Source: Escherichia coli (GTDB taxonomy: Bacteria; Pseudomonadota; Gammaproteobacteria; Enterobacterales; Enterobacteriaceae). From it: a stretch of 64,000 nucleotides of DNA. The DNA is taken from the NCBI RefSeq assembly GCF_024298765.1, contig NZ_CP101210.1; one strand, written 5' to 3'. Positions 663 to 47,807 of this stretch are shown in pieces. The notes below the pieces were generated by a model. It was not told the DNA's origin, searched no databases, and worked only from the letters and a program-made list of their open reading frames with translations. How positions within the stretch are numbered: position 1 is the stretch's first letter; each line of letters opens with the position of its first letter. Made by a program: the position numbers and the translations under genes.

Positions 663-1688
663 ATGCACATTTTATCTGTTTCAAAAAAGGAAGTTGGAAG
701 AGCTGGGGATAGATTAGTTTCTCAGTTTGGTACAGGTGAAAAATATAAAGAGGAAGATGTACAAATTCTTCATGAGTGGAGGATGTTGCATTTATATCCT
801 TTAAGTAAAATACAATTTTATATGGAAAGAGAGGCTATTTCCTTAAACAAAAATGCGTTACTATCCTCTAGAATTAAGAGGATGCCTTCCATTGTTACTA
901 AGCTTTCTAGATTTCCTGATATGAAGTTAAATAAGATGCAGGATCTTGGTGGGTGCCGGGCTATTTTAAATAATCTGGATCAAGTGTATGATTTAGTTAA
1001 TAAAATAAAATCATCTAAATTCTCACATGAACTAGTTAGAATGGATGATTACATGATAGACGTGAAAGATTCTGGTTATAGAAGCTTTCATATGGTCTAT
1101 TCATTCCAAAATAAAAAATTTCCATCTTTAAATGGGTTGCGCATTGAAATGCAAATAAGAACAGCTATTCAACATAGCTGGGCTACAGCAGTTGAAATGG
1201 TTGGTTTGTTTCGAAAGGAATCATTGAAATCTGGTTTTGGTGATGCAAGATGGCTTAGGTTTTTTGAATTGGTATCAGAGCTTTTTTATAAACTTGAGTA
1301 TGAAAAAGAACCATCTGGGAGTTATATAAAAATATCAGAAGAATTAAGTTATTTATCCGTCGAGTTGAATGTTTTCGATATATTAGCTGCTTACAATGCC
1401 GTAGTTAGCCATATTGAGGGTAGCAAAAAATATGATAAAGGACTTTGCATAATTGTTGTTGATACCATAAAGCGGAATATAAATATAAAGAGCTTCGAAA
1501 ATCACAATCATGCGAAGGCGGCAGAAGCTTATGTCGAGTCTGAAAAATACTGCGCGGAAAATAAAGGCTGTGAAGTGGCTATGGTTTCTGTTAGTTCAAT
1601 TAGTGAATTAAAAAATGCATATCCTGCTTACTTTTTAGATACGAAAACTTTTTTAAATTATCTCAGTAGGTATGTTTTTATAAAATAA
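663..1688 (+). CDS. RelA/SpoT-domain nucleotidyltransferase (small alarmone synthetase-like, toxSAS/CapRel-like) with fused C-terminal domain of unknown function
   Basis: 341-aa ORF. Synthetase-fold motifs visible in the translation: RIKRMPSIVTK (RxKxxxSxxxK), DLGGCRAI (DxxGxR), GYRSFHMVY (compare GYQSLH of Rel enzymes), EMQIRTAIQHSWA (E-x-Q-I-R-T...H). About 140 aa of C-terminal extension without a recognised motif. Visibly AT-rich relative to flanks. Confidence 0.7.
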   Translation: MHILSVSKKEVGRAGDRLVSQFGTGEKYKEEDVQILHEWRMLHLYPLSKIQFYMEREAISLNKNALLSSRIKRMPSIVTKLSRFPDMKLNKMQDLGGCRAILNNLDQVYDLVNKIKSSKFSHELVRMDDYMIDVKDSGYRSFHMVYSFQNKKFPSLNGLRIEMQIRTAIQHSWATAVEMVGLFRKESLKSGFGDARWLRFFELVSELFYKLEYEKEPSGSYIKISEELSYLSVELNVFDILAAYNAVVSHIEGSKKYDKGLCIIVVDTIKRNINIKSFENHNHAKAAEAYVESEKYCAENKGCEVAMVSVSSISELKNAYPAYFLDTKTFLNYLSRYVFIK

Positions 1689-3391: not shown

Positions 3392-4442
3392 CGTGCGGGT
3401 ATTACTTAGACCTGTTCTGGTGCCTGAGCTTGGGCTGGTGGTCCTTAAGCCGGGCCGTGAATCCATACAGATATTTCATAATCCTCGAGTGCTGGTGGAA
3501 CCGGAACCAAAAAGCATGCGTAATCTGCCATCCGGAGTCGTTCCTGCCGTTCGCCAGCCGCTGGCGGAAGACAAAACATTGCTGCCGTTTTTTAGTAACG
3601 AACGGGTGATTCGTGCTGCTGGCGGCGTTGGCGCATTGTCTGACTGGCTATTACGTCATATTACATCCTGCCAGTGGCCTAATGGCGATTACCATCACAC
3701 TGAAACAGTCATTCACCGTTATGGTACCGGCGCAATGGTGTTGTGCTGGCACTGCGACAACCAACTGCGTGACCAGACATCGGAATCACTGGAGCTGCTT
3801 GCTCAACAAAATCTGACAGCATGGGTGATTGACGTCATCCGTCACGCAATAAGCGGTACGCAGGAGCGGGAATTATCTTTGGCTGAATTATCCTGGTGGG
3901 CGGTCTGCAATCAGGTGGTGGATGCACTACCTGAGGCTGTATCGCGTCGTTCGCTGGGATTACCAGCGGAAAAAATCTGCTCGGTGTACCGCGAAAGCGA
4001 CATCGTACCGGGAGAGCAGACCGCCACCAGCATATTGAAACAACGCACAAAAAATCTTGCACCGTTGCCTTACGCCCACCAGCAACAAAAACCACCACAG
4101 GAAAAGACGGTGGTAAGCATCAACGTTGATCCAGAGTCTCCGGAATCTTTCATGAAGCTGCCTAAACGTCGCCGCTGGGTTAAGGAGAAATACACTCGTT
4201 GGGTTAAGACACAGCCGTGTGCTTGCTGCGGTATGCCAGCCGACGATCCGCATCATCTGATTGGTCACGGGCAGGGCGGAATGGGAACAAAAGCACATGA
4301 TCTCTTTGTGTTGCCTTTGTGCAGAAAGCATCACAACGAGCTGCATACGGATACAGTGGCATTTGAAGAGAAGTATGGCTCCCAACTGGAGCTGATATTT
4401 CGTTTTATCGATCGCGCGCTGGCAACTGGCGTACTGGCGTAA
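3354..4442 (+). CDS. ydfU: YdfU-like prophage protein with C-terminal Cys/His HNH-like motif
   Basis: Large ORF upstream of the Q gene as in Qin; C-terminus CACCGMPADDPHHLIGHG...LCRKHHNELH resembles an HNH/zinc-binding nuclease motif. True start uncertain (first 50 aa are low-complexity; an internal Met at 3516 is possible). Confidence 0.5.
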   Translation: MRPALSSNGSGGNVRVLLRPVLVPELGLVVLKPGRESIQIFHNPRVLVEPEPKSMRNLPSGVVPAVRQPLAEDKTLLPFFSNERVIRAAGGVGALSDWLLRHITSCQWPNGDYHHTETVIHRYGTGAMVLCWHCDNQLRDQTSESLELLAQQNLTAWVIDVIRHAISGTQERELSLAELSWWAVCNQVVDALPEAVSRRSLGLPAEKICSVYRESDIVPGEQTATSILKQRTKNLAPLPYAHQQQKPPQEKTVVSINVDPESPESFMKLPKRRRWVKEKYTRWVKTQPCACCGMPADDPHHLIGHGQGGMGTKAHDLFVLPLCRKHHNELHTDTVAFEEKYGSQLELIFRFIDRALATGVLA

Positions 4443-4455
4443 GTGGAGAACGAGC

Positions 4456-5208
4456 ATGAACCTTGAAGCCTTACCAAAATATTACTCCCCAAAATCTCCA
4501 AAATTGAGCGATGACGCTCCAGCGACAGGCACCGGTTGTTTAACAATTACGGATGTAATGGCAGCGCAGGGGATGGTGCAGTCGAAAGCACCACTTGGGT
4601 TGGCCTTATTTCTGGCAAAAGTTGGTGTTCAGGACCCTCAGTTTGCGATTGAAGGCCTGCTAAATTACGCGATGGCACTGGATAACCCGACATTGAACAA
4701 ATTGAGTGAAGAAATCCGGTTACAGATTATTCCTTACCTCGTGAATTTTGCCTTTGCTGATTACTCCAGGTCTGCGGCAAGTAAGGCTCGCTGTGAGCAT
4801 TGTTCAGGTACGGGATTTTATAATGTATTGCGCGAAGTGGTGAAACACTACAGACGCGGGGAATCTGTAATCAAGGAAGAATGGGTGAAGGAACTATGTC
4901 AGCATTGCCATGGTAAGGGCGAAGTCAGCACAGCGTGCAGAGGGTGTAAGGGTAAAGGGATTGTTCTGGATGAAAAAAGAACCCGGTTTCATGGCGTACC
5001 GGTATATAAGATTTGTGGGCGTTGTAATGGAAACCGATTTAGTCGTTTACCGACCACGCTGGCACGACGTCATGTCCAGAAGCTGGTACCAGACCTGACC
5101 GATTATCAGTGGTATAAGGGGTATGCGGACGTCATTGATAAACTGGTAACAAAGTGCTGGCAGGAAGAAGCATACGCGGAAGCGCAATTGAGGAAGGTGA
5201 CGAGATAA
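4456..5208 (+). CDS. quuQ: late-gene antiterminator Q-like protein with DnaJ-type CxxCxGxG zinc-finger repeats
   Basis: 250 aa, matching the length of Qin Quu[25 protein letters not shown] motifs; immediately upstream of a late promoter/terminator pair. Confidence 0.6.
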
Positions 5209-5340: not shown

Positions 5341-5883
5341 TGCTTTAAATGGGGCAATAGAGATATTGAATCTCATCCCGGGATAAACATTGGCAGTTGA
5401 AGGTCCACGCGAACCATTTATCCGGCAAAATTCCACGCGTAATCCTGTGGTAATTTCTTCTGCATCTCGAAGATTGAGAGCTGAAACGTGAAGCTGGGCA
5501 TCGATACGCCATCGGATGGGAATATAAGACCTTTGCTGCTTTTGTAGTCAAAGTTTTTGACAATTCCTGTCATTTTAGGGGACAGAAAAACTCCTTAATA
5601 CTGATAACCTGGTGCACCATACACACGTTCCTGGAGAAAACTACTTTTTTGATAGGGTTGAAGGTGGCTGGATGTCTAAAATAAACATTGCTTCATATGT
5701 TCAACTATGAGTTAATGACTGCGTCGGTTTGAAGAACAGACGATATACGAAGTAGTTTACTAAAGCAGTTCTCATTTCAGGTGTTATTCACTTATTCCTT
5801 CTTTGAGTCTCTCCAATTAAGTACGAAGTCGTTTCTGTTATGCAAACCATTTATGCCGAAAGGCTCAAGTTAAGGAATGTAGA

Positions 5884-6099
5884 ATGTCAAATAAAATGAC
5901 TGGTTTAGTAAAATGGTTTAACGCTGATAAAGGTTTCGGCTTTATTTCTCCTGTTGATGGTAGTAAAGATGTGTTTGTGCATTTTTCTGCGATTCAGAAT
6001 GATAATTATCGAACCTTATTTGAAGGTCAAAAGGTTACCTTCTCTATAGAGAGTGGTGCTAAAGGTCCTGCAGCAGTAAATGTCATCATTACTGATTAA
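5884..6099 (+). CDS. cspB: cold-shock protein CspB-like
   Basis: 71 aa [64 protein letters not shown]...; RNP-1-like KGFGFI motif; long upstream leader typical of csp genes. Confidence 0.8.
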
Positions 6100-6380
6100 A
6101 ATTCATCGCTCGTCTGTATACGATAACGAAGAAGGCTGATGCCTGAGTAGAGATACGGACAGAGTAGTGAATATTGGATCTCTTTAATAAAAAGTAAGGA
6201 GGTCCAATACATGAAACAATGGCCAGCATATTTGGCAAAATCTTAATCAGGAAAAGTATGCTAACCATTGTGGTGAAGTGCAGGTTTGCTGCATGAATAG
6301 TTTTACAGCAGAAGCTAACTGCTGGCATGGCAAAACAAAGTGCGTAAGTGGATGACTCCCACAAAAAGCACCACAATCTC

Positions 6381-8408: not shown

Positions 8409-8771
8409 GGTAATATTAAATCGGAACATTTACATCGCGGAATGTAAAATTTAAATAAAAAGGACTCTTCCATGAGCCAAAATTCCTGAAATCTTAAGGG
8501 TAAGATAAAAGGTCTTAATCAGAATGACACGTTTTATTAATAAATAAAGCTATTCTTTCATTGCTGTGTTTTTCTTTACAAAAGTAATCCTTGCTATGGG
8601 TGGTTAATCATGCGTTAATGGTGTTCTGGTTTGTTACAAATTTATCTGAAGCAGTCATTTTTATAATTTTATTATTTGTACCTCTTGAGATTTCCTTGTT
8701 GGTTTTTCTCTCTGATATTTTTTTTTCGGACCATTCTGCCCAAGGGCTAATTTCTTCAAAAGGTAATAATT

Positions 8772-8984
8772 ATGTCTAACAAAATGACTGGTTTAGTGAA
8801 ATGGTTTAACCCTGAAAAAGGTTTTGGTTTCATCACGCCGAAAGATGGCAGCAAAGATGTGTTTGTCCATTTCTCAGCAATTCAGAGCAACGATTTCAAA
8901 ACATTAACTGAGAATCAGGAAGTTGAATTTGGTATTGAGAACGGACCTAAAGGTCCTGCCGCTGTTCATGTAGTGGCGCTTTGA
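8772..8984 (+). CDS. cspI: cold-shock protein CspI-like
   Basis: 70 aa [70 protein letters not shown]. Confidence 0.8.
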
Positions 8985-9015
8985 GGTAGACAATATTACA
9001 AACCATATTCACTTT

Positions 9016-30420: not shown

Positions 30421-33381
30421 ATGGCAGTAAAGATTTCAGGTGTACTGAAAGACGGCACAGGAAAACCGGTACAGAACTGCACAATCCAGCTGAAAGCAAA
30501 ACGTAACAGCACCACGGTGGTGGTGAACACGCTGGCATCTGAAAATCCGGATGAAGCCGGGCGTTACAGTATGGACGTTGAGTACGGTCAGTACAGCGTT
30601 ATTCTGTTGGTGGAGGGATTCCCGCCGTCACATGCCGGGACCATCACCGTGTATGAAGATTCTCAACCCGGTACGCTGAATGATTTTCTCGGTGCCATGA
30701 CGGAGGATGATGCCCGTCCGGAGGCACTGCGCCGTTTTGAGCTGATGGTGGAAGAGGTGGCGCGTAACGCGTCCGCAGTGGCACAGAACACGGCAGCCGC
30801 AAAGAAGTCAGCCAGCGATGCCGGCACATCTGCCCGTGAGGCGGCAACCCATGCGACTGATGCTGCAGACTCAGCACGCGCAGCCAGCACGTCAGCCGGA
30901 CAGGCCGCGTCGTCGGCTCAGTCAGCGTCTTCCAGCGCAGGAACGGCATCAGCAAAGGCCACTGAAGCGGAAAAAAGTGCTGCCGCTGCAGAGTCCTCAA
31001 AAAGCGCGGCAGCTACCAGTGCCGGTGCCGCGAAAACGTCTGAAACGAATGCTTCAGCGTCACAACAATCAGCCGCCACTTCTGCATCCACCGCGACCAC
31101 GAAAGCGTCAGAAGCAGCCACTTCAGCACGGGATGCGTCGGCCTCAAAAGAGGCAGCGAAATCATCAGAAACGAACGCAGCCTCGAGCGCCAGTAGTGCC
31201 GCTTCCTCGGCAACGGCGGCAGCAAATTCTGCGAAGGTGGCAAAAACGTCCGAGACGAACGCCAGGTCTTCTGAAACGGCAGCGGGACAGAGCGCCTCAG
31301 CTGCGGCAGGCTCAAAAACAGCGGCTGCATTATCTGCCAGTGCCGCGTCAACAAGTGCCGGGCAGGCCTCAGCCAGTGCCACCGCCGCCGGAAAATCGGC
31401 AGAAAGTGCTGCATCGTCTGCTTCAACAGCCACAACGAAGGCTGGCGAAGCCACTGAACAGGCCAGCGCAGCAGCGAGTTCTGCTTCCGCAGCGAAGACA
31501 TCCGAAACGAACGCGAAAGCGTCGGAAACCAGCGCAGAATCCTCAAAAACGGCTGCCGCATCGTCAGCCAGTTCGGCGGCGTCATCGGCATCATCTGCGT
31601 CTGCTTCAAAAGATGAGGCGACCAGACAGGCGTCAGCAGCAAAGGGCAGCGCCACGACGGCATCCACGAAGGCGACAGAGGCAGCTGGCAGTGCGACGGC
31701 GGCAGCTCAGAGCAAAAGTACGGCGGAATCCGCGGCAACGCGCGCCGAGACAGCGGCAAAACGGGCAGAGGATATTGCATCCGCCGTGGCGCTTGAGGAT
31801 GCGAGCACGACGAAAAAGGGGATAGTCCAGCTAAGCAGCGCGACCAACAGCACTTCCGAGTCACAGGCGGCAACGCCAAAAGCCGTTAAGGCCGCGTATG
31901 AGCTGGCTAACGGGAAATACACCGCACAGGATGCAACGACAGCACAGAAAGGGATAGTTCAGCTTAGCAACGCGACCAACAGCACATCTGAAATGCTGGC
32001 GGCAACGCCAAAGTCGGTAAAGGCAGCCTATGACCTTGCTAACGGGAAATATACTGCTCAGGACGCTACGACAGCACAAAAAGGAATTGTCCAGCTCAGT
32101 AGTGCAACCAACAGCGCATCTGAAACGCTTGCCGCGACACCGAAAGCAGTGAAAGCAGCTAATGATAATGCGAATGGTCGGGTACCTTCTGCCCGTAAGG
32201 TGAATGGTAAGGCGCTTTCAGCGGATATAACACTGACGCCGAAAGATATTGGTACGCTTAACTCAACAACAATGTCATTCAGCGGTGGTGCTGGTTGGTT
32301 CAAATTAGCAACGGTAACCATGCCACAGGCGAGTTCTGTTGTTTCAATTACGTTGATTGGTGGCGCGGGATTTAACGTGGGGTCACCTCAACAGGCAGGT
32401 ATATCTGAACTTGTTTTGCGTGCAGGTAATGGTAATCCGAAGGGGATTACTGGTGCTTTATGGCAGCGCACATCGACAGGGTTTACAAATTTTGCCTGGG
32501 TCAATACATCTGGTGATACTTACGATATTTACGTTGCAATCGGAAATTATGCGACTGGTGTAAATATTCAATGGGATTATACCAGTAATGCCAGCGTGAC
32601 GATTCATACGTCACCAGCATATTCTGCTAATAAGCCGGAAGGGTTAACGGACGGTACAGTTTATTCACTCTATACGCCATCAGAGCAGTTTTATCCGCCT
32701 GGCGCACCAATCCCGTGGCCATCAGATACCGTTCCGTCTGGCTATGCCCTGATGCAGGGGCAGGCTTTTGACAAATCTGCATACCCGAAACTTGCAGCGG
32801 CTTATCCGTCAGGCGTGATCCCTGATATGCGTGGCTGGACGATTAAGGGCAAACCTGCCAGTGGTCGGGCCGTATTGTCTCAGGAACAGGACGGCATTAA
32901 ATCGCATACCCACAGCGCCAGCGCATCCAGTACGGATTTGGGGACGAAAACCACATCGTCGTTTGATTACGGCACTAAATCCACGAATAACACTGGTGCG
33001 CATACCCATAGTTTAAGTGGCAGCACGAATGCGGCTGGTAATCACAGCCATAGAGATGGCCGTCGATTTAACCCCAGTGTTTTTAAAGATACTTATCAAT
33101 ATGGTTATACAAGCTCAGGTCAAAATACCTGGGGTGTACAAGGCTCAGTAGGTATGTCTACGGGGTGGTTAGCGAATACCAGTACAGATGGTAATCATAG
33201 CCACTCACTGTCCGGCACAGCAGCATCTGCAGGTGCACACGCGCATACTGTCGGTATTGGTGCTCATACGCACTCCGTTGCGATTGGTTCACATGGACAC
33301 ACCATCACCGTTAACGCTGCTGGTAACGCGGAAAACACCGTCAAAAACATCGCATTTAACTATATTGTGAGGCTTGCATAA
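30421..33381 (+). CDS. stf: side tail fibre protein Stf-like
   Basis: N-terminus [37 protein letters not shown]... and C-terminus ...[31 protein letters not shown] resemble lambda Stf; long Ala/Ser-rich low-complexity region and tandem repeats. Confidence 0.85.
31807..32195 (+). repeat. three tandem ~129-132 bp repeats within stf (43-44 aa units, ...[41 protein letters not shown]...)
   Basis: Repeat units begin near 31807, 31936 and 32068; visible at both nucleotide and protein level. Confidence 0.7.
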
Positions 33382-33983
33382 TGGCATTCAGAATGAGTGA
33401 ACAACCACGGACCATAAAAATTTATAATCTGCTGGCCGGAACTAATGAATTTATTGGTGAAGGTGACGCATATATTCCGCCTCATACCGGTCTGCCAGCA
33501 AACAGTACCGATATTGCACCGCCAGATATTCCGGCTGGCTTTGTGGCTGTTTTCAACAGTGATGAGGCATCGTGGCATCTCGTTGAAGATCATCGGGGAA
33601 AAACCGTCTATGACGTGGCTTCCGGCGACGCGTTATTTATTTCTGAACTTGGCTCGTTACCGGAAAATGTCACCTGGTTATCCCCGGAAGGGGAATATCA
33701 GAAGTGGAACGGCACAGCCTGGGTGAAGGATACGGAAGCAGAAAAACTGTTCCGGATCCGGGAGGCGGAAGAAACAAAAAACAGCCTGATGCAGGTAGCC
33801 AGTGAGCATATTGCGCCGCTTCAGGATGCTGTGGATCTGGAGATCGCAACGGAGGAAGAAACCTTGTTGCTGGAAGCCTGGAAAAAGTATCGGGTGTTGC
33901 TGAACCGTGTTGATACATCAACTGCACCGGATATTGAATGGCCAGCCCTACCGTATGGTAAGATATATAAATTCTATAATTAG
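33381..33983 (+). CDS. tfa: tail fibre assembly protein Tfa-like
   Basis: 200 aa starting in a TAATG overlap with the stf stop. Confidence 0.75.
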
Positions 33984-34053
33984 AAGTATCTTTCCATTTA
34001 AGGCTAGGAAGGGGGGCTTGGAAAACGTAAGGAATCTCACACCGAGATTATTT

Positions 34054-34644
34054 TTATATATCAGGCGTCTGATTTTTTGCTTTAGCTCTTAAAATGGTTT
34101 GCCGCGAGGTTTTGAATTCTTGGGCAATGTCACTTATATTTATACCTGACTTAATTTGCTCTAGTACCCTCTGTATTTGTTCATCATTTAACACAGGTGG
34201 GCGACCAAATCGCTTTCCTGCGCCCCGTGCTCTTAATATCCCTGAATGAGTACGCTCAAGTAAAAGGTCTCGCTCAAATTCAGCGACTGCTGAAATTACT
34301 TGCATCATCATTTTTCCAGGTGGACTGGTCAGGTCAACGCCCCCCAATGCTAAGCAATGCACTTTGATACCTGCTTTGGTCAGTTGTTCCACCGTTTTAC
34401 TGATATCCATTGGATTACAACCGAGGCGATCCAGTTTTGTGACAATCAATGCATCACCTCTTTTCAGTCGATCAAGCAACTGGTTAAAACCAGGACGCTC
34501 ACTGGTTGCTGCTGAGCCGCTAATTTGTTCTTCAATTATTTGCTGAGATTTGATGTTAAAACCTGCACTTTCGATTTCCCGACGTTGATTTTTGGTTGTC
34601 TGTTCCAGAGTTGATACCCGACAGTAAGCATAAATTCGAGACAT
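34054..34644 (-). CDS. pin: serine DNA invertase (Pin/Gin/Hin family)
   Basis: 196 aa; N-terminal [12 protein letters not shown] with catalytic-Ser context and a C-terminal HTH; adjacent to tail fibre genes. Confidence 0.8.
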
Positions 34645-34962
34645 AGTGAGATCTTCTATACGAAATTGGTGTACATATCATAATGCATCTCAGAAAATAA
34701 TTTTGATTATTTTTGTACATATTTGTATGTACACGTTCGAAAATAAACGAATGCGTATGCAACCCCGTAATTTTGGTGAGACCCAAAATCGATTTTGTGA
34801 AAAATGGCCTTAACTCGGTTTGTTTTTCGAGTTCCGGGCGGACTCAAGGAAGAAGAATAGTGTTGCGTGTTATTTTAACCAGATTTCAAGTTGTTTGGTC
34901 GTGGAAAAGTGGAGCAAAATGTTGTTAAAGTGGAAAAATGATAAAAAAGTAAGTTTATTATA

Positions 34963-35196
34963 TTACATTTTACCATTTAAATTTTTGTTGTCTTTAAGAA
35001 CTGATATCGCTGTTTGTAATAATTCTTTGTTATCCAGCCATGACTTTTTCTTTATGTTTCCTTCAATGTAATCAAGCAATGTTCTGGTATTGATAGGTCT
35101 TCCCTGTTTTGCTACTTCCACTACAGCATCCCCTAGGATAATTCTTACTTCAGGAAGCTGCGCAGGGAACCACTTTAGGGTGTCTTTTGATTTCAT
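34963..35196 (-). CDS. ydfK: YdfK/YnaE-family small prophage protein (77 aa from internal Met)
   Basis: Position next to pin as in Qin; length from Met-12 matches the recalled 77-aa YdfK. Confidence 0.45.
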   Translation of the reverse strand: MKSKDTLKWFPAQLPEVRIILGDAVVEVAKQGRPINTRTLLDYIEGNIKKKSWLDNKELLQTAISVLKDNKNLNGKM

Positions 35197-35982
35197 GAAG
35201 ATATTCCTTAAAATATTATTGATTTTCATTGCGATATTGTATGTCTGATTCAGGATATGTTGACTTATACATCGGTTTTGTCTGGGTTATTGGATATGCC
35301 AATCCCTAATTTTATTAGAGCATGACTAAAAATGCTGAATATGATAAGGAGCGAAGTGATTATCAGTATGCTGTTCATATAGCCTCGAATTAGTAATGTG
35401 TTATATATGATATAGTTGACAATTTTTATCTTGGGTGTTCTTAAAGTTCGTAGATAAACATTGTCGTTTCAGGTATACAGGAATGCTAACAGGTGGCGGC
35501 AAAAATCAGGCGGTTTATGGCGCAAGCTGAAGTGGCAACTGCAAACTATCTTATGCAGAGACTCTACACGGATTGGGTTTAAAAGTATACATAGATAACA
35601 GTTTTTATCTGAAGAAGAAAAATATCAAGGTGATATAGCCTATATGCCTTTGATGCGGAGGAATGAATGTGATGGGAGTGATGTATCTGAATAGTTGAAA
35701 AACCGCAGACACGCCTTATGCAAGAACGTGCTGCGGTTGGCTGGTAAATTTTTCGATAGTGCGAGTATTGAATGATTTCCAGCCGTTATTGATTTTACGC
35801 GTAAATCCATGAAAAAACTACTTATCTGTTGGGGAGTTTTTTTTGGGGCATATATGGGACAGGAATCGGCCCCAGATAGACACTGAGATCGAACTTAGGA
35901 TGCTTTTTAAAAAATGCAACTATCTGAAAAAACCTAGAAAACGCCAAGGAAACCACAGGATGGGAAAAAACACCTGTGAATT

Positions 35983-37266
35983 ATGGATTTCCAGTTATAT
36001 TCGCTCGGTGCAGCGTTAGTGTTTCATGAAATATTTTTTCCTGAATCATCAACGGCAATGGCGTTAATTCTGGCAATGGGAACCTACGGTGCAGGTTATG
36101 TGGCGCGTATTGTCGGAGCATTTATTTTCGGCAAAATGGGCGACAGAATAGGGCGTAAAAAAGTGCTCTTTATTACCATCACCATGATGGGGATCTGTAC
36201 CACCTTAATTGGTGTGTTACCGACCTATGCACAGATTGGTGTTTTTGCACCCATCTTGCTGGTGACGCTGCGTATTATTCAGGGATTGGGTGCAGGTGCG
36301 GAAATTTCCGGTGCCGGTACGATGCTGGCGGAATATGCGCCAAAAGGTAAGCGCGGAATTATCTCCTCATTTGTGGCTATGGGAACTAACTGCGGAACCT
36401 TAAGCGCAACGGCAATCTGGGCCTTTATGTTCTTCATTCTCAGTAAAGAGGAACTGCTGGCGTGGGGATGGCGTATACCGTTCCTGGCGAGCGTTGTCGT
36501 GATGGTCTTTGCTATCTGGTTGCGTATGAATCTGAAAGAAAGCCCGGTCTTTGAGAAGGTTAACGACAGCAACCAACCGACAGCAAAACCTGCACCTGCT
36601 GGTAGCATGTTCCAGAGCAAATCCTTCTGGCTGGCAACAGGACTGCGTTTTGGTCAGGCAGGTAACTCCGGGTTAATTCAGACTTTCCTTGCAGGCTATT
36701 TAGTACAGACGTTATTGTTTAACAAAGCAATTCCAACAGATGCATTGATGATCAGTTCGATTCTCGGCTTTATGACCATTCCGTTCCTTGGTTGGTTATC
36801 CGATAAAATTGGTCGCCGGATCCCGTATATTATTATGAATACCTCTGCGATTGTGCTGGCGTGGCCAATGCTTTCTATCATCGTAGATAAAAGCTATGCC
36901 CCGAGCACCATTATGGTTGCACTGATTGTGATTCATAACTGTGCGGTGCTGGGATTATTTGCTCTGGAAAACATTACCATGGCAGAAATGTTCGGCTGTA
37001 AAAACCGCTTTACCCGGATGGCTATTTCAAAAGAAATTGGTGGTCTTATCGCTTCCGGTTTTGGTCCTATCCTGGCGGGTATTTTCTGCACCATGACGGA
37101 ATCCTGGTATCCGATCGCCATTATGATCATGGCATATTCAGTGATTGGTTTAATCTCTGCGCTGAAAATGCCAGAAGTGAAAGACCGTGATTTAAGTGCG
37201 CTGGAAGACGCTGCGGAAGATCAACCGCGTGTTGTAAGAGCTGCGCAACCTTCCAGAAGTCTTTAA
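35983..37266 (+). CDS. ydfJ: MFS (metabolite:H+ symporter family) transporter YdfJ, N-terminally truncated
   Basis: 427 aa starting within the conserved WYDF-like region (MDFQLYSLGAALVFHEIFFP), lacking the usual ~25-aa N-terminus; in-frame TGA 6 nt upstream of the ATG. Confidence 0.7.
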   Translation: MDFQLYSLGAALVFHEIFFPESSTAMALILAMGTYGAGYVARIVGAFIFGKMGDRIGRKKVLFITITMMGICTTLIGVLPTYAQIGVFAPILLVTLRIIQGLGAGAEISGAGTMLAEYAPKGKRGIISSFVAMGTNCGTLSATAIWAFMFFILSKEELLAWGWRIPFLASVVVMVFAIWLRMNLKESPVFEKVNDSNQPTAKPAPAGSMFQSKSFWLATGLRFGQAGNSGLIQTFLAGYLVQTLLFNKAIPTDALMISSILGFMTIPFLGWLSDKIGRRIPYIIMNTSAIVLAWPMLSIIVDKSYAPSTIMVALIVIHNCAVLGLFALENITMAEMFGCKNRFTRMAISKEIGGLIASGFGPILAGIFCTMTESWYPIAIMIMAYSVIGLISALKMPEVKDRDLSALEDAAEDQPRVVRAAQPSRSL

Positions 37267-37354
37267 ATCCTCAATCCCTTCTCTTACCGGAGAGGGGATT
37301 TTTATTCATATAACAAAACATGTAGCTTGCCATATTTATATTTAAGGAATTGTT

Positions 37355-44836: not shown

Positions 44837-44879
44837 GCTCCGTTTAACATTCATTGAGAAAACTGATGCTAATGTGTCA

Positions 44880-44980
44880 ACGATCCGTTATCAGTGCAGG
44901 AAAATGCCTGTTAGCGTAAAAGCAAAACACAAATCTATCCATGCAAGCATTCACCGCCGGTTTACTGGCGGTTTTTTTTC
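44880..44980 (+). ncRNA. mgrR: candidate small RNA (MgrR-like), ending at an intrinsic terminator
   Basis: Downstream of dgcZ: GTTTAA element at 44842-44847 and extended -10-like TGCTAATGT at 44866-44876, then about 96 nt to the hairpin CCGCCGG-TTTACT-GGCGG plus T-run (44952-44980). Assigned from memory that MgrR lies next to mgtS; could be only the dgcZ terminator. Confidence 0.35.
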
Positions 44981-45054
44981 GCCGTCATAAAAATCAGGCC
45001 CCTTGTACACAGTTGTAACAAGGGGCCGGTTAGGTGAGGGATTATCTCCGTTCA

Positions 45055-45150
45055 TTAGTCATCCCATTTGTGGCTGAAATACGCGGCCAGAAAACCAGAA
45101 AATAAAATTATTCCCAGTACGGCCATAAAAACATTCATATTACCCAGCAT
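45055..45150 (-). CDS. mgtS: small membrane protein MgtS (YneM), 31 aa
   Basis: Minus-strand translation MLGNMNVFMAVLGIILFSGFLAAYFSHKWDD; GGAGG ahead of the ATG; GC hairpin downstream (44997-45031). Confidence 0.75.
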   Translation of the reverse strand: MLGNMNVFMAVLGIILFSGFLAAYFSHKWDD

Positions 45151-47588: not shown

Positions 47589-47807
47589 CTACATAGCGTG
47601 TTGATTATAATAGGGCACGCCGAGCGCATCCGACTTATCACTGCCAGTACCCATGTGATTTAAATCAAACGGTGGTTGTTCCTGCGATGGGGGAACAACC
47701 ACGACATTGGCACAGGAAGTAACAACCTGCTGCGTGGTTTGTTCCGCAATGCCCTGCGTGGAAAAGAGAATAAACGCAGGTGCTATTGCGGATAAAAGTG
47801 GTTTCAT
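47589..47807 (-). CDS. marB: multiple antibiotic resistance protein MarB
   Basis: 72 aa with signal peptide, downstream of marA. Confidence 0.8.
   Translation of the reverse strand: MKPLLSAIAPAFILFSTQGIAEQTTQQVVTSCANVVVVPPSQEQPPFDLNHMGTGSDKSDALGVPYYNQHAM

Follow-up and report, generated by a model that had tools for sequence, protein, structure and literature searches.

The right-hand end of a Qin/mEp460-type prophage within the start of ydfJ in Escherichia coli

Prophages at ydfJ and at related sites

Phage lambda integrates between gal and bio; its attP and attB share a short common core, and attP carries a long P arm beside the tail-fibre end and a P' arm beside int. At the 5' end of ydfJ, one described resident is the Qin prophage of E. 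coli K-12 (attR at ydfJ, attL at ynfP/rspB), annotated at 1632277..1652745 together with a ydfJ of 427 aa and with ynfP, a 36-aa 5' fragment of ydfJ; its integration has been described as removing the promoter and 28 N-terminal codons of the gene (PMC6379469). The same attB is used by the PPydfJ prophages of STEC and EPEC (Nakamura et al. 2021, PMC8112680), for which attP was obtained by PCR and the att of ydfJ prophages was given as 18-19 bp (S7 Fig legend). Rac, at ttcA, likewise enters a host gene at its 5' end, with a different integrase and target, and alters the N-terminus of TtcA rather than merely truncating it (PMC6379469). Among deposited phage genomes, the temperate lambdoid phage mEp460_ev081 (LR597641.1), Tritos, PhiR42_1 and HannyBb carry a contiguous attP in the order P arm, core TTATGGATTTC, P' arm, int and xis.

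Positions 1-35991 of the 64-kb stretch of DNA analysed here (the window) are almost certainly a lambda-like prophage of the Qin/mEp460 type, whose right-hand end is an attR within the start of ydfJ, and no evidence contradicts an integration event. The junction is already annotated in the K-12 reference (Qin, ydfJ, ynfP), has been published (PMC6379469, PMC8112680) and is common to most sequenced E. coli.

The window prophage resembles Qin of K-12 in integration site, core and P arm, in the pin-ydfK-ynfT end module and in the 427-codon ydfJ remnant, with 98.4% identity over window 34900-36000. Qin, however, is heavily decayed at ~20 kb, with its structural genes deleted, its tail fibre truncated and an IS2 in intQ, whereas the prophage in the window (~36 kb of it) retains a full late region (terminase, portal, capsid, tail, J, lom and a 988-aa tail fibre) and has a RelA/SpoT-domain gene roughly at the place of relBE in Qin. 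The phages of the mEp460 group end in stf-tfa-pin-ydfK as the window does; mEp460_ev081 (locus L008) is 96.0% identical over 3309 bp (blastn, 32687-35994), but its attP is contiguous and not split into attL and attR, and the comparison concerns the end region, so that the remainder may be mosaic. PPydfJ prophages carry a dinI-like gene and effector cargo (nleG, DUF1076) beside attR, where the window has pin-ydfK-ynfT and has lost the dinI-like gene. Rac has a homologous ynaM-ynaE end module (YnaM/YnfT and YdfK families) beside its attR, but its homology to the window ends at ~35741-35755, short of the ydfJ-specific P arm.

The features of the junction are as follows (window coordinates).
32687..35994, + strand: prophage right end, colinear with mEp460_ev081 (tail fibre 3' end, tfa, Ser recombinase pin, ydfK, attP P arm, core)
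34963..35196, - strand: ydfK, 77-aa cold-shock protein, the final sizeable phage gene before the junction
35265..35378, - strand: ynfT, 37-aa small protein of the YnaM/YnfT family, 5' of ydfK on the same strand
35701..35738, - strand: terminator-type RNA hairpin with a five-U run, the first two U inside the stem
35822..35844, strand not applicable: deletion scar, where 22 bp replace a dinI-like gene (~219 bp in the O157:H7 TR01 prophage)
35843..35980, + strand: attP P arm, the phage-derived half of attR, a block common to all the different prophages found at ydfJ
35844-35850 (TGGGGCA) and 35855-35861 (TGGGACA), + strand: candidate integrase arm-type sites, repeat motif TGGGRCA
35977..35979, + strand: in-frame TGA, phage-derived (in attP, not in attB), shutting the ydfJ frame one codon 5' of the ATG
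35981..35991, strand not applicable: att core TTATGGATTTC, 11 bp identical in attL, attR, attB and attP (three-way and attP alignments)
35983..37266, + strand: truncated ydfJ, codons 29-455 of an MFS transporter of the metabolite:H+ symporter (MHS) family, TIGR00883, lacking 28 N-terminal codons and severed from the rspAB promoter region
37273..37300, + strand: terminator-like hairpin (12-pair stem) and T-run, just 3' of the ydfJ stop

The att core and the site of crossover

The preliminary description of this DNA had proposed that prophage integration truncated ydfJ, a proposal that would fail if prophage-free genomes had the same 5' end. They do not: in the prophage-free strain MSB1_1A, rspB is followed after 57 bp by a ydfJ of 455 aa and then by ydfI, uninterrupted, and this intact allele has 28 additional N-terminal codons, MTIEKHERSTKDLVKAAVSGWLGTALEF, while its residues 29-455 match the window ORF. 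The prophage-free locus is the same as the window from 35981 rightward except for 1 SNP, and leftward of 35981 the two are unrelated. The displaced 5' fragment of ydfJ was found at the opposite prophage end, adjoining rspB, in both K-12 (where it is ynfP) and strain 64.1; at attL of these two strains the missing fragment is followed by the same core and then by phage DNA. The 455-aa allele and the comparison of the att sites thus uphold the truncation.

The core TTATGGATTTC occurs at 35981-35991 of the window (attR), at L007 3707 and L006 47600 (attL), at L002 4006 (attB) and at L008 3653 (attP), and is single-copy in the window. The attL and attR matches overlap at L002 4001-4019 (BLAST), an imperfect extension of the core spans ~35977-35994, in agreement with the published att of 18-19 bp, and the edge of the Qin feature in K-12, 1632277, corresponds to window 35991. 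We reconstructed attP (314 bp) from the P arm and core of the window and the P' arm of attL; this sequence is contiguous, at 97.8-99.4% identity, in the four phage genomes mEp460_ev081, Tritos, PhiR42_1 and HannyBb, and in mEp460_ev081 it sits between ydfK and int-xis. The aligned sites place the crossover inside the 11-bp core, which includes the ATG of ydfJ codon 29.

Recombination by the tyrosine integrase of the prophage would have joined the phage attP to an attB on the chromosome, inside ydfJ codons 28-32. Strand exchange inside the core would yield an attR in which the core joins the phage P arm to ydfJ codons 29-455; in the reciprocal attL, ~45 kb leftward and beyond the window, rspB and ydfJ codons 1-31 would be followed by the P' arm of the phage, with int. 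The start codon of the window ORF is Met29 of YdfJ, located in the att core, and the TGA just 5' of it is phage DNA. The left prophage end lies outside the window, and attL and int are known from relatives only (strain 64.1, K-12 and mEp460); a sequence search of the 64-kb window found no second copy of the core and no rspB or ydfJ 5' fragment.

A genome search found the junction identical base for base in thousands of genomes, and because of this recurrence it is not a chance feature. Counting a genome as uninterrupted when it covers at least 80% of a 131-bp query spanning the junction, the site is uninterrupted in 2012 of 5426 complete E. coli genomes, and the majority of the remainder are split at the same base. 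The ydfK-ynfT-ydfJ arrangement of the window, that is, a Qin/mEp460-type end, is present in 1970 genomes.

Phage DNA between ydfK and the core

The roughly 700 bp preceding ydfJ had been described as non-coding and A/T-rich. The second part holds, with a GC content of 38.1% for 35230-35980 against 49.4% for the window and 46.7% for ydfJ; the first does not, since ynfT is present. The 750 bp 5' of ydfJ hold ynfT, the terminator hairpin, the dinI-deletion scar and a P arm of ~140 bp with candidate integrase arm sites, and what remains of the region besides ynfT is the upstream region of ynfT-ydfK and phage att-arm DNA. Both genes are placed from the RefSeq annotation, ydfK by way of a 99.9%-identical locus (L001); in the program-made ORF list the ydfK ORF reaches 35229. 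YnfT matches Pfam PF23676 (YnaM-like) over its full length, positions 1-37 of 37, with E = 6.5e-28. On the - strand, a promoter match at 35613-35584 might serve ynfT-ydfK but is no better than chance.

The hairpin at 35701..35738 folds at -20.7 kcal/mol (z = -3.84), and 0 of 200 shuffles were equally stable. It probably ended the dinI-like gene found at this place in other ydfJ prophages. A search of Rfam, run over the whole window at the gathering threshold and over 34900-36100 at E <= 1, found no family at threshold in 34900-36100; a match to CssrB (28.7 bits against a gathering score of 76) was rejected, being due to the hairpin alone. In the O157:H7 TR01 prophage (L005; blastn), window 35717-35822 corresponds to 4001-4105 and window 35844-36000 to 4324-4480, with a DinI-like CDS at 4089-4331. 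Homology thus resumes at 35844, where the P arm begins, at 98.7% identity. The P-arm block is near-invariant in four different prophages, and the four deposited phage genomes have it joined without a break to the core and the P' arm. The preliminary description had put attR within 35230-35980; the P arm (~35843-35980) does lie there, but the core, 35981-35991, falls at or just past the right edge.

Two copies of the motif TGGGRCA stand at the beginning of the P arm, and in the attP of mEp460 four copies in a single orientation occur at -137 and -126 (P arm) and at +70 and +81 (P' arm), with an exact IHF consensus at +26, in the P' arm. TGGGGCA occurs only five times in the 64-kb window, counting both strands; the Poisson probability of at least three copies within 230 bp is ~1e-7, clustering far beyond chance. 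TGGGRCA may be the motif bound by the integrase at its arm sites. The layout of a short common core, a long P arm beside the tail-fibre end and a P' arm beside int is that of lambda, and so would be the candidate arm-type motifs repeated in each arm, with the IHF consensus falling between the core and the repeats of P'. The core and the arm motifs differ from those of lambda, and the target lies within a coding sequence that is left unrepaired.

The truncated ydfJ and its fate

The window ORF has 427 codons, with an ATG at 35983 and the opening MDFQLYSLGAALVF (MDFQLYS...). The in-frame TGA that had been noted just upstream is indeed read in the sequence: it starts 6 nt 5' of the ATG, with the single codon ATT in between. 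Profile alignments with TIGR00883, ShiA and ProP likewise confirm that the ORF begins inside a conserved N-terminal motif. Residue 1 of the window protein aligns with position 7 of TIGR00883, whereas residue 23 of the intact 455-aa protein aligns with position 1, and the matches of the truncated protein to the ShiA and ProP profiles start at profile positions 37 and 40, with 36-39 profile positions preceding this point. The ORF starts inside LEF|MDF, which leaves incomplete the N-terminus with the first transmembrane helix and the E-[WF]-x-D-F motif; in the hydropathy profile, the junction at 28/29 cuts a hydrophobic stretch of intact YdfJ at ~residues 14-46. The window ORF scores 453.5 bits against TIGR00883 (positions 7-400 matched) and the intact allele 462.9, with a cut-off of 443.45; Pfam MFS_1 matches the ORF at 2.6e-37, and a search of PDB sequences with intact YdfJ gave no match at E <= 1e-5. 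PGAP (RefSeq) annotates the gene as 'incomplete; missing N-terminus'.

We take the rspAB-ydfJ-ydfI cluster to be linked to L-gulonate catabolism, as Wichelecki and colleagues reportedly described in Biochemistry in 2014. At the intact locus, the interval from rspB to ydfJ contained neither a promoter-like nor a terminator-like site in a consensus scan. The terminator consensus scan covering the hairpin at 37273..37300 found 2 sites against 0.2 expected, and this hairpin is likely the end of the ancestral rspA-rspB-ydfJ transcript.

Integration would have removed from ydfJ about half of the first transmembrane helix, its own ribosome-binding site and the link to the rspA promoter region. In view of these losses, the truncated gene is most likely a silent or non-functional remnant. 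It had been suggested that its expression would depend on phage-end sequences, a suggestion that the analysis does not support: the consensus scan found no + strand promoter-like site in 35215-36100, and inspection of the sequence 5' of the ATG at 35983 found no Shine-Dalgarno sequence. Promoter-like sites in 34900-36100 number 5, against 4.5 expected by chance, and since none lies on the + strand upstream of ydfJ, a phage-end promoter for the gene is unsupported.

A different consequence of the same integration event, at which the preliminary description had hinted and which we consider unlikely, is that the truncated ydfJ still works: read-through or an unrecognised phage-end promoter would supply transcription, translation would start at Met29, and a protein with a shortened first helix would keep some activity. 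In each of the four lysogen copies examined the reading frame is uninterrupted, and the copies differ by 9-15 synonymous changes against 0-1 non-synonymous ones. This pattern is, however, uninformative on selection, because the differences may predate integration and the truncated ydfJ of K-12 shows no difference from an intact allele; repeated or recent entry of prophages into a conserved gene would be equally expected to produce it. Other points in favour are a TIGR00883 score above the MHS family cut-off, the status of ydfJ as a CDS and not a pseudogene in the current K-12 reference, a change in ydfJ RNA upon DicC induction, and an azithromycin-tolerance phenotype of the Keio ydfJ knockout in one high-throughput screen (PMC9405208). 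Against these stand the lack of both a + strand promoter-like site and a Shine-Dalgarno sequence over the stretches scanned above, the ancestral promoter region now ~45 kb distant, the loss of MHS profile positions 1-6 along with one half of the first hydrophobic segment, and the PGAP assignment as incomplete, while a phenotype seen in one screen may reflect polarity or noise. Less probable still, and in our view improbable, is the fuller form of this proposal, in which the truncated gene is maintained and expressed in the ~60% of E. coli that have a prophage here, with Met29 supplied by the att core as start and transcription coming from the phage end, e.g. by late-operon read-through. If true, the crossover point of the phage would leave a usable start codon, and a regulated host transporter would become phage-controlled.

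Two further explanations, which would replace truncation by site-specific integration, are both extremely improbable. The 427-codon ydfJ could be the native gene, with the longer form or the rspB-side fragment secondary, and older annotations do give the 427-aa protein as the gene product, which is still a CDS in the current K-12 record; but the 28 extra residues are ancestral, because they fall within the N-terminal portions of the MHS, ShiA, ProP and related profiles, the extra codons are fused to phage DNA at attL, and the DNA 5' of 35981 is phage DNA present in deposited phage genomes, so that the intact MSB1_1A allele, the att alignments and the profile alignments refute this explanation. 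An IS-mediated rearrangement, a deletion or illegitimate recombination in place of the integrase might be thought of, given how often IS elements turn up in prophages of this group (strain 64.1 has IS66 copies, including one within the ydfJ 5' fragment, and K-12 intQ has an IS2), but it is refuted by the four-way att comparison, which finds one core in attL, attR, attB and attP; further points against it are a breakpoint that does not shift by a single base across thousands of genomes with different prophages, an integrase-excisionase pair adjoining attP and no IS end at the window junction.

With site-specific integration as the preferred reading, little of this is new beyond the K-12 reference annotation and the published accounts (PMC6379469, PMC8112680), and its value is one of annotation. 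In lysogens, ydfJ should be read as what is left of a 455-aa transporter gene after truncation at the 5' end; the core at 35981-35991 fixes the prophage boundary to the base; and the 750 bp upstream are phage DNA (ynfT, the ydfK leader and the attP P arm) and not an empty intergenic region. The survey also gives the occupancy of this integration hot spot, uninterrupted in 2012 of 5426 complete genomes and holding a Qin/mEp460-type end in 1970, and the link to the mEp460 group indicates that the ydfJ site is still in use by phages known as separate deposited genomes.

Truncation of ydfJ by the prophage

The feature is an ordinary prophage-chromosome junction, already documented, at which a lambda-like prophage meets the host transporter gene ydfJ.

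Features of the window (coordinates, strand where assigned, description; Rfam matches lie above the gathering score)
1 to ~35991, lambda-like prophage with hok/sok, cspB and cspI with their leaders, lysis genes, terminase, portal, capsid, tail genes, J and lom
2254-2428, sok antitoxin RNA of hokD (Rfam)
5723-6146 and 8625-9011, cspA-type thermoregulator leaders of prophage cspB and cspI (Rfam)
30415-33381, tail fibre, 988 aa
33381-33983, tfa
33724-33922, IS009, within tfa (Rfam)
34054-34644, minus, serine invertase
34963-35196, minus, ydfK, 77-aa form starting at 35196 (RefSeq and K-12 annotation)
35265-35378, minus, ynfT, 37 aa (RefSeq annotation)
35738-35701, minus, hairpin then U run, -20.7 kcal/mol, z = -3.84
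35983-37266, ydfJ, chromosomal, followed rightwards by ydfI, ydfZ and rspR/ydfH
37273-37300, plus, terminator-like hairpin with T-run, between ydfJ and ydfI
44848-45061, Hfq-binding sRNA STnc560, chromosomal part (Rfam)

The mechanical ydfK ORF is longer than the annotated form (88 aa, 34963-35229, minus strand, ATG at 35229), and the left limit of 35230 used in the preliminary description follows it. At about the place taken by relBE in the K-12 cryptic prophage Qin, the early region of the prophage has a 341-aa ORF with a RelA/SpoT domain (663-1688, plus strand). It matched the PADLOC candidate defence family PDC-S33 over its full length (E = 5.3e-119) and may be an anti-phage gene of the toxic small alarmone synthetase type.

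The preliminary description had proposed that prophage integration truncated ydfJ. Its reading of the ORF start (ATG 35983, MDFQLYSLGAALVF) was correct, as was the in-frame TGA just upstream (35977-35979), which a single codon separates from the ATG. In a megablast of window 35000-36600, 1970 of 5426 complete E. coli genomes matched over the full length and had ydfK, ynfT and ydfJ arranged as here; matches to other prophages start at ~35703, 35717 or 35844, and a further class starts at 35977, for example in strain MSB1_1A. This strain is without the prophage and carries, in order, rspA, rspB, a 57-bp spacer, ydfJ (455 aa) and ydfI. The N-terminus of its YdfJ reads MTIEKHERSTKDLVKAAVSGWLGTALEF followed by MDFQLYS, and the window ORF therefore represents residues 29-455. 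Thus the prophage-free 5' end, checked for identity with that of the window, is a different one, and truncation is borne out by the 28 additional N-terminal residues of the MSB1_1A allele. On the evidence of the profile alignments these residues are ancestral and no artefact, because the profiles extend into them: the MHS profile TIGR00883 aligns from residue 23 of intact YdfJ, the truncated protein entering at profile position 7, and for ShiA, ProP and related profiles the alignment begins at residues 5-12 of the intact protein.

The attachment core and the phage arm

Aligned without gaps, attL (K-12 JB41), attB (MSB1_1A) and attR (window) share a perfect core, TTATGGATTTC, of 11 bp at window 35981-35991, with the imperfect extension TGAA(T)TTATGGATTTC(C/A)AG; core and extension together agree with the att of ydfJ prophages given as 18-19 bp in the S7 Fig legend of PMC8112680. 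On the prophage-free locus (L002), the lysogen match from rspB into the ydfJ 5' fragment ends at 4016-4019 and the ydfJ side starts at 4001. By comparison with attP, base 35980 of attR is phage and base 35992 is host, which confines the exchange to the 11 bp; the TGA is phage sequence, and the ATG, host codon 29, lies inside the core. The preliminary description had placed attR within 35230-35980; the core is not strictly inside that interval.

The window contains one copy of the core but lacks both rspB and the ydfJ 5' fragment, and attL therefore lies beyond its left edge. The 5' fragment at attL runs directly into phage sequence, in K-12 as a 36-aa ORF (MTIEK...EFMDFKSHAC) that the reference annotation names ynfP. 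The closest relative is strain 64.1 (NZ_CP059917.1), where 46.9 kb, IS66 insertion included, separate the two copies of the core. An IS66-family element sits in the 5' fragment of this strain at about codon 3 (~47600-47800 of its locus, L006) and a second copy interrupts tail genes; neither insertion was seen over the part covered by the window.

Joining the core to the phage arms of the window and of the strain 64.1 attL gave a hypothetical attP of 314 bp. Four phage records, those of mEp460_ev081, Tritos, PhiR42_1 and HannyBb, contain it without interruption at 97.8-99.4% identity. In mEp460_ev081 the order is tail fibre, tfa, Ser recombinase, ydfK, attP, integrase, excisionase and exonuclease, and window 32687-35994 follows it colinearly (96.0% identity), the match ending 3 bases past the core. 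The sequence from 35843/35844 to the core is near-invariant across four different prophages at ydfJ, and homology to the O157 prophage resumes at the same point with 98.7% identity; we take these 138 bp to be the attP P arm. TGGGRCA occurs in the mEp460 attP at -137 and -126 (window 35844-35850 and 35855-35861), +70 and +81, in a single orientation, with an exact IHF consensus at +26, and the heptamer TGGGGCA has only 5 occurrences on both strands of the whole window. In lambda attP each arm carries arm-type sites, with an IHF site separating the core from the P' repeats. The motifs of the mEp460 attP follow this layout and are candidate arm-type and IHF sites, to which integrase and IHF, respectively, may bind.

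The phage end upstream of ydfJ

The 700 bp preceding ydfJ had been described as non-coding and A/T-rich. The interval is A/T-rich (35230-35980, 38.1% GC vs 49.4% for the whole window) but not non-coding, as a small gene and functional phage DNA lie in it. The gene, ynfT, matches Pfam PF23676 over its full length (E = 6.5e-28); ydfK follows it on the same strand, and the sequence from 35379 onward is therefore the upstream region of both. The minus-strand hairpin at 35701-35738 looks like an intrinsic terminator. A sub-threshold Rfam match to the Shigella sRNA CssrB (35598-35735, plus strand; 28.7 bits vs a gathering score of 76) has most of its well-aligned, high-confidence part in this hairpin, and the homologous phage end in Shigella may be the source of CssrB.

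The ydfK-ynfT module with its hairpin (35000-35755) recurs at other prophage ends, as ynaM-ynaE at Rac-type ends and also at ends adjoining a SAM-dependent methyltransferase gene; homology with these stops at ~35741-35755, so the module has been exchanged between phages of different integration specificities. Just right of the point corresponding to the hairpin, the O157:H7 TR01 prophage (L005) carries a dinI-like gene adjoining attR, whereas the window has 22 bp at 35822-35844 in place of L005 4105-4324, by alignment a deletion scar in which the gene's flanks alone are left. K-12 Qin likewise is without this gene.

Consequences for ydfJ and occurrence of the junction

In the intact locus no promoter-like or terminator-like site was found between rspB and ydfJ, and a terminator-like hairpin follows ydfJ; rspA, rspB and ydfJ were therefore probably transcribed together, ydfJ last. 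The position of the hairpin suggests that ydfI is transcribed separately and is maybe less affected by the prophage than ydfJ. Integration would separate ydfJ from the rspA-side promoter region by ~45 kb of phage DNA and strip the gene of its ribosome-binding site and first 28 codons. By hydropathy, residues ~14-46 form a single hydrophobic segment, and the junction falls in its middle.

Several observations favour residual function of the remnant: the four lysogen copies sampled all have an open ORF, the product scores above the TIGR00883 family cut-off, DicC induction changed ydfJ RNA, and the Keio ydfJ knockout raised azithromycin tolerance in one screen (PMC9405208). Differences among ydfJ copies are also mainly synonymous (9-15 vs 0-1 non-synonymous), although variation older than integration explains this pattern equally well, since one intact allele has exactly the sequence of the K-12 remnant. 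The proposal that phage-end sequences drive the remnant is unsupported, since no plus-strand promoter-like site was found in 35215-36100 and no Shine-Dalgarno before ATG 35983.

Using 131 bp centred on the core as query, we found the site uninterrupted (coverage of at least 80%) in 2012 of the 5426 genomes, with most others split at the same base. The K-12 reference record lists 'cryptic prophage Qin' at 1632277..1652745, its right boundary equal to window 35991, together with ynfP and a ydfJ of 427 aa, and PGAP labels lysogen ydfJ 'incomplete; missing N-terminus'. According to PMC6379469, insertion of Qin at the ydfJ 5' end costs the gene its promoter and 28 N-terminal codons. In PMC8112680, ydfJ is a standard prophage integration locus with a defined att sequence and an attP obtained by PCR. 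Taken together, the original observation is confirmed and its interpretation as a prophage truncation is supported, with two corrections; what is added here is the base-level anatomy of attR in the window, the link to mEp460-type phage genomes, the candidate arm-type sites and the counts of site occupancy.
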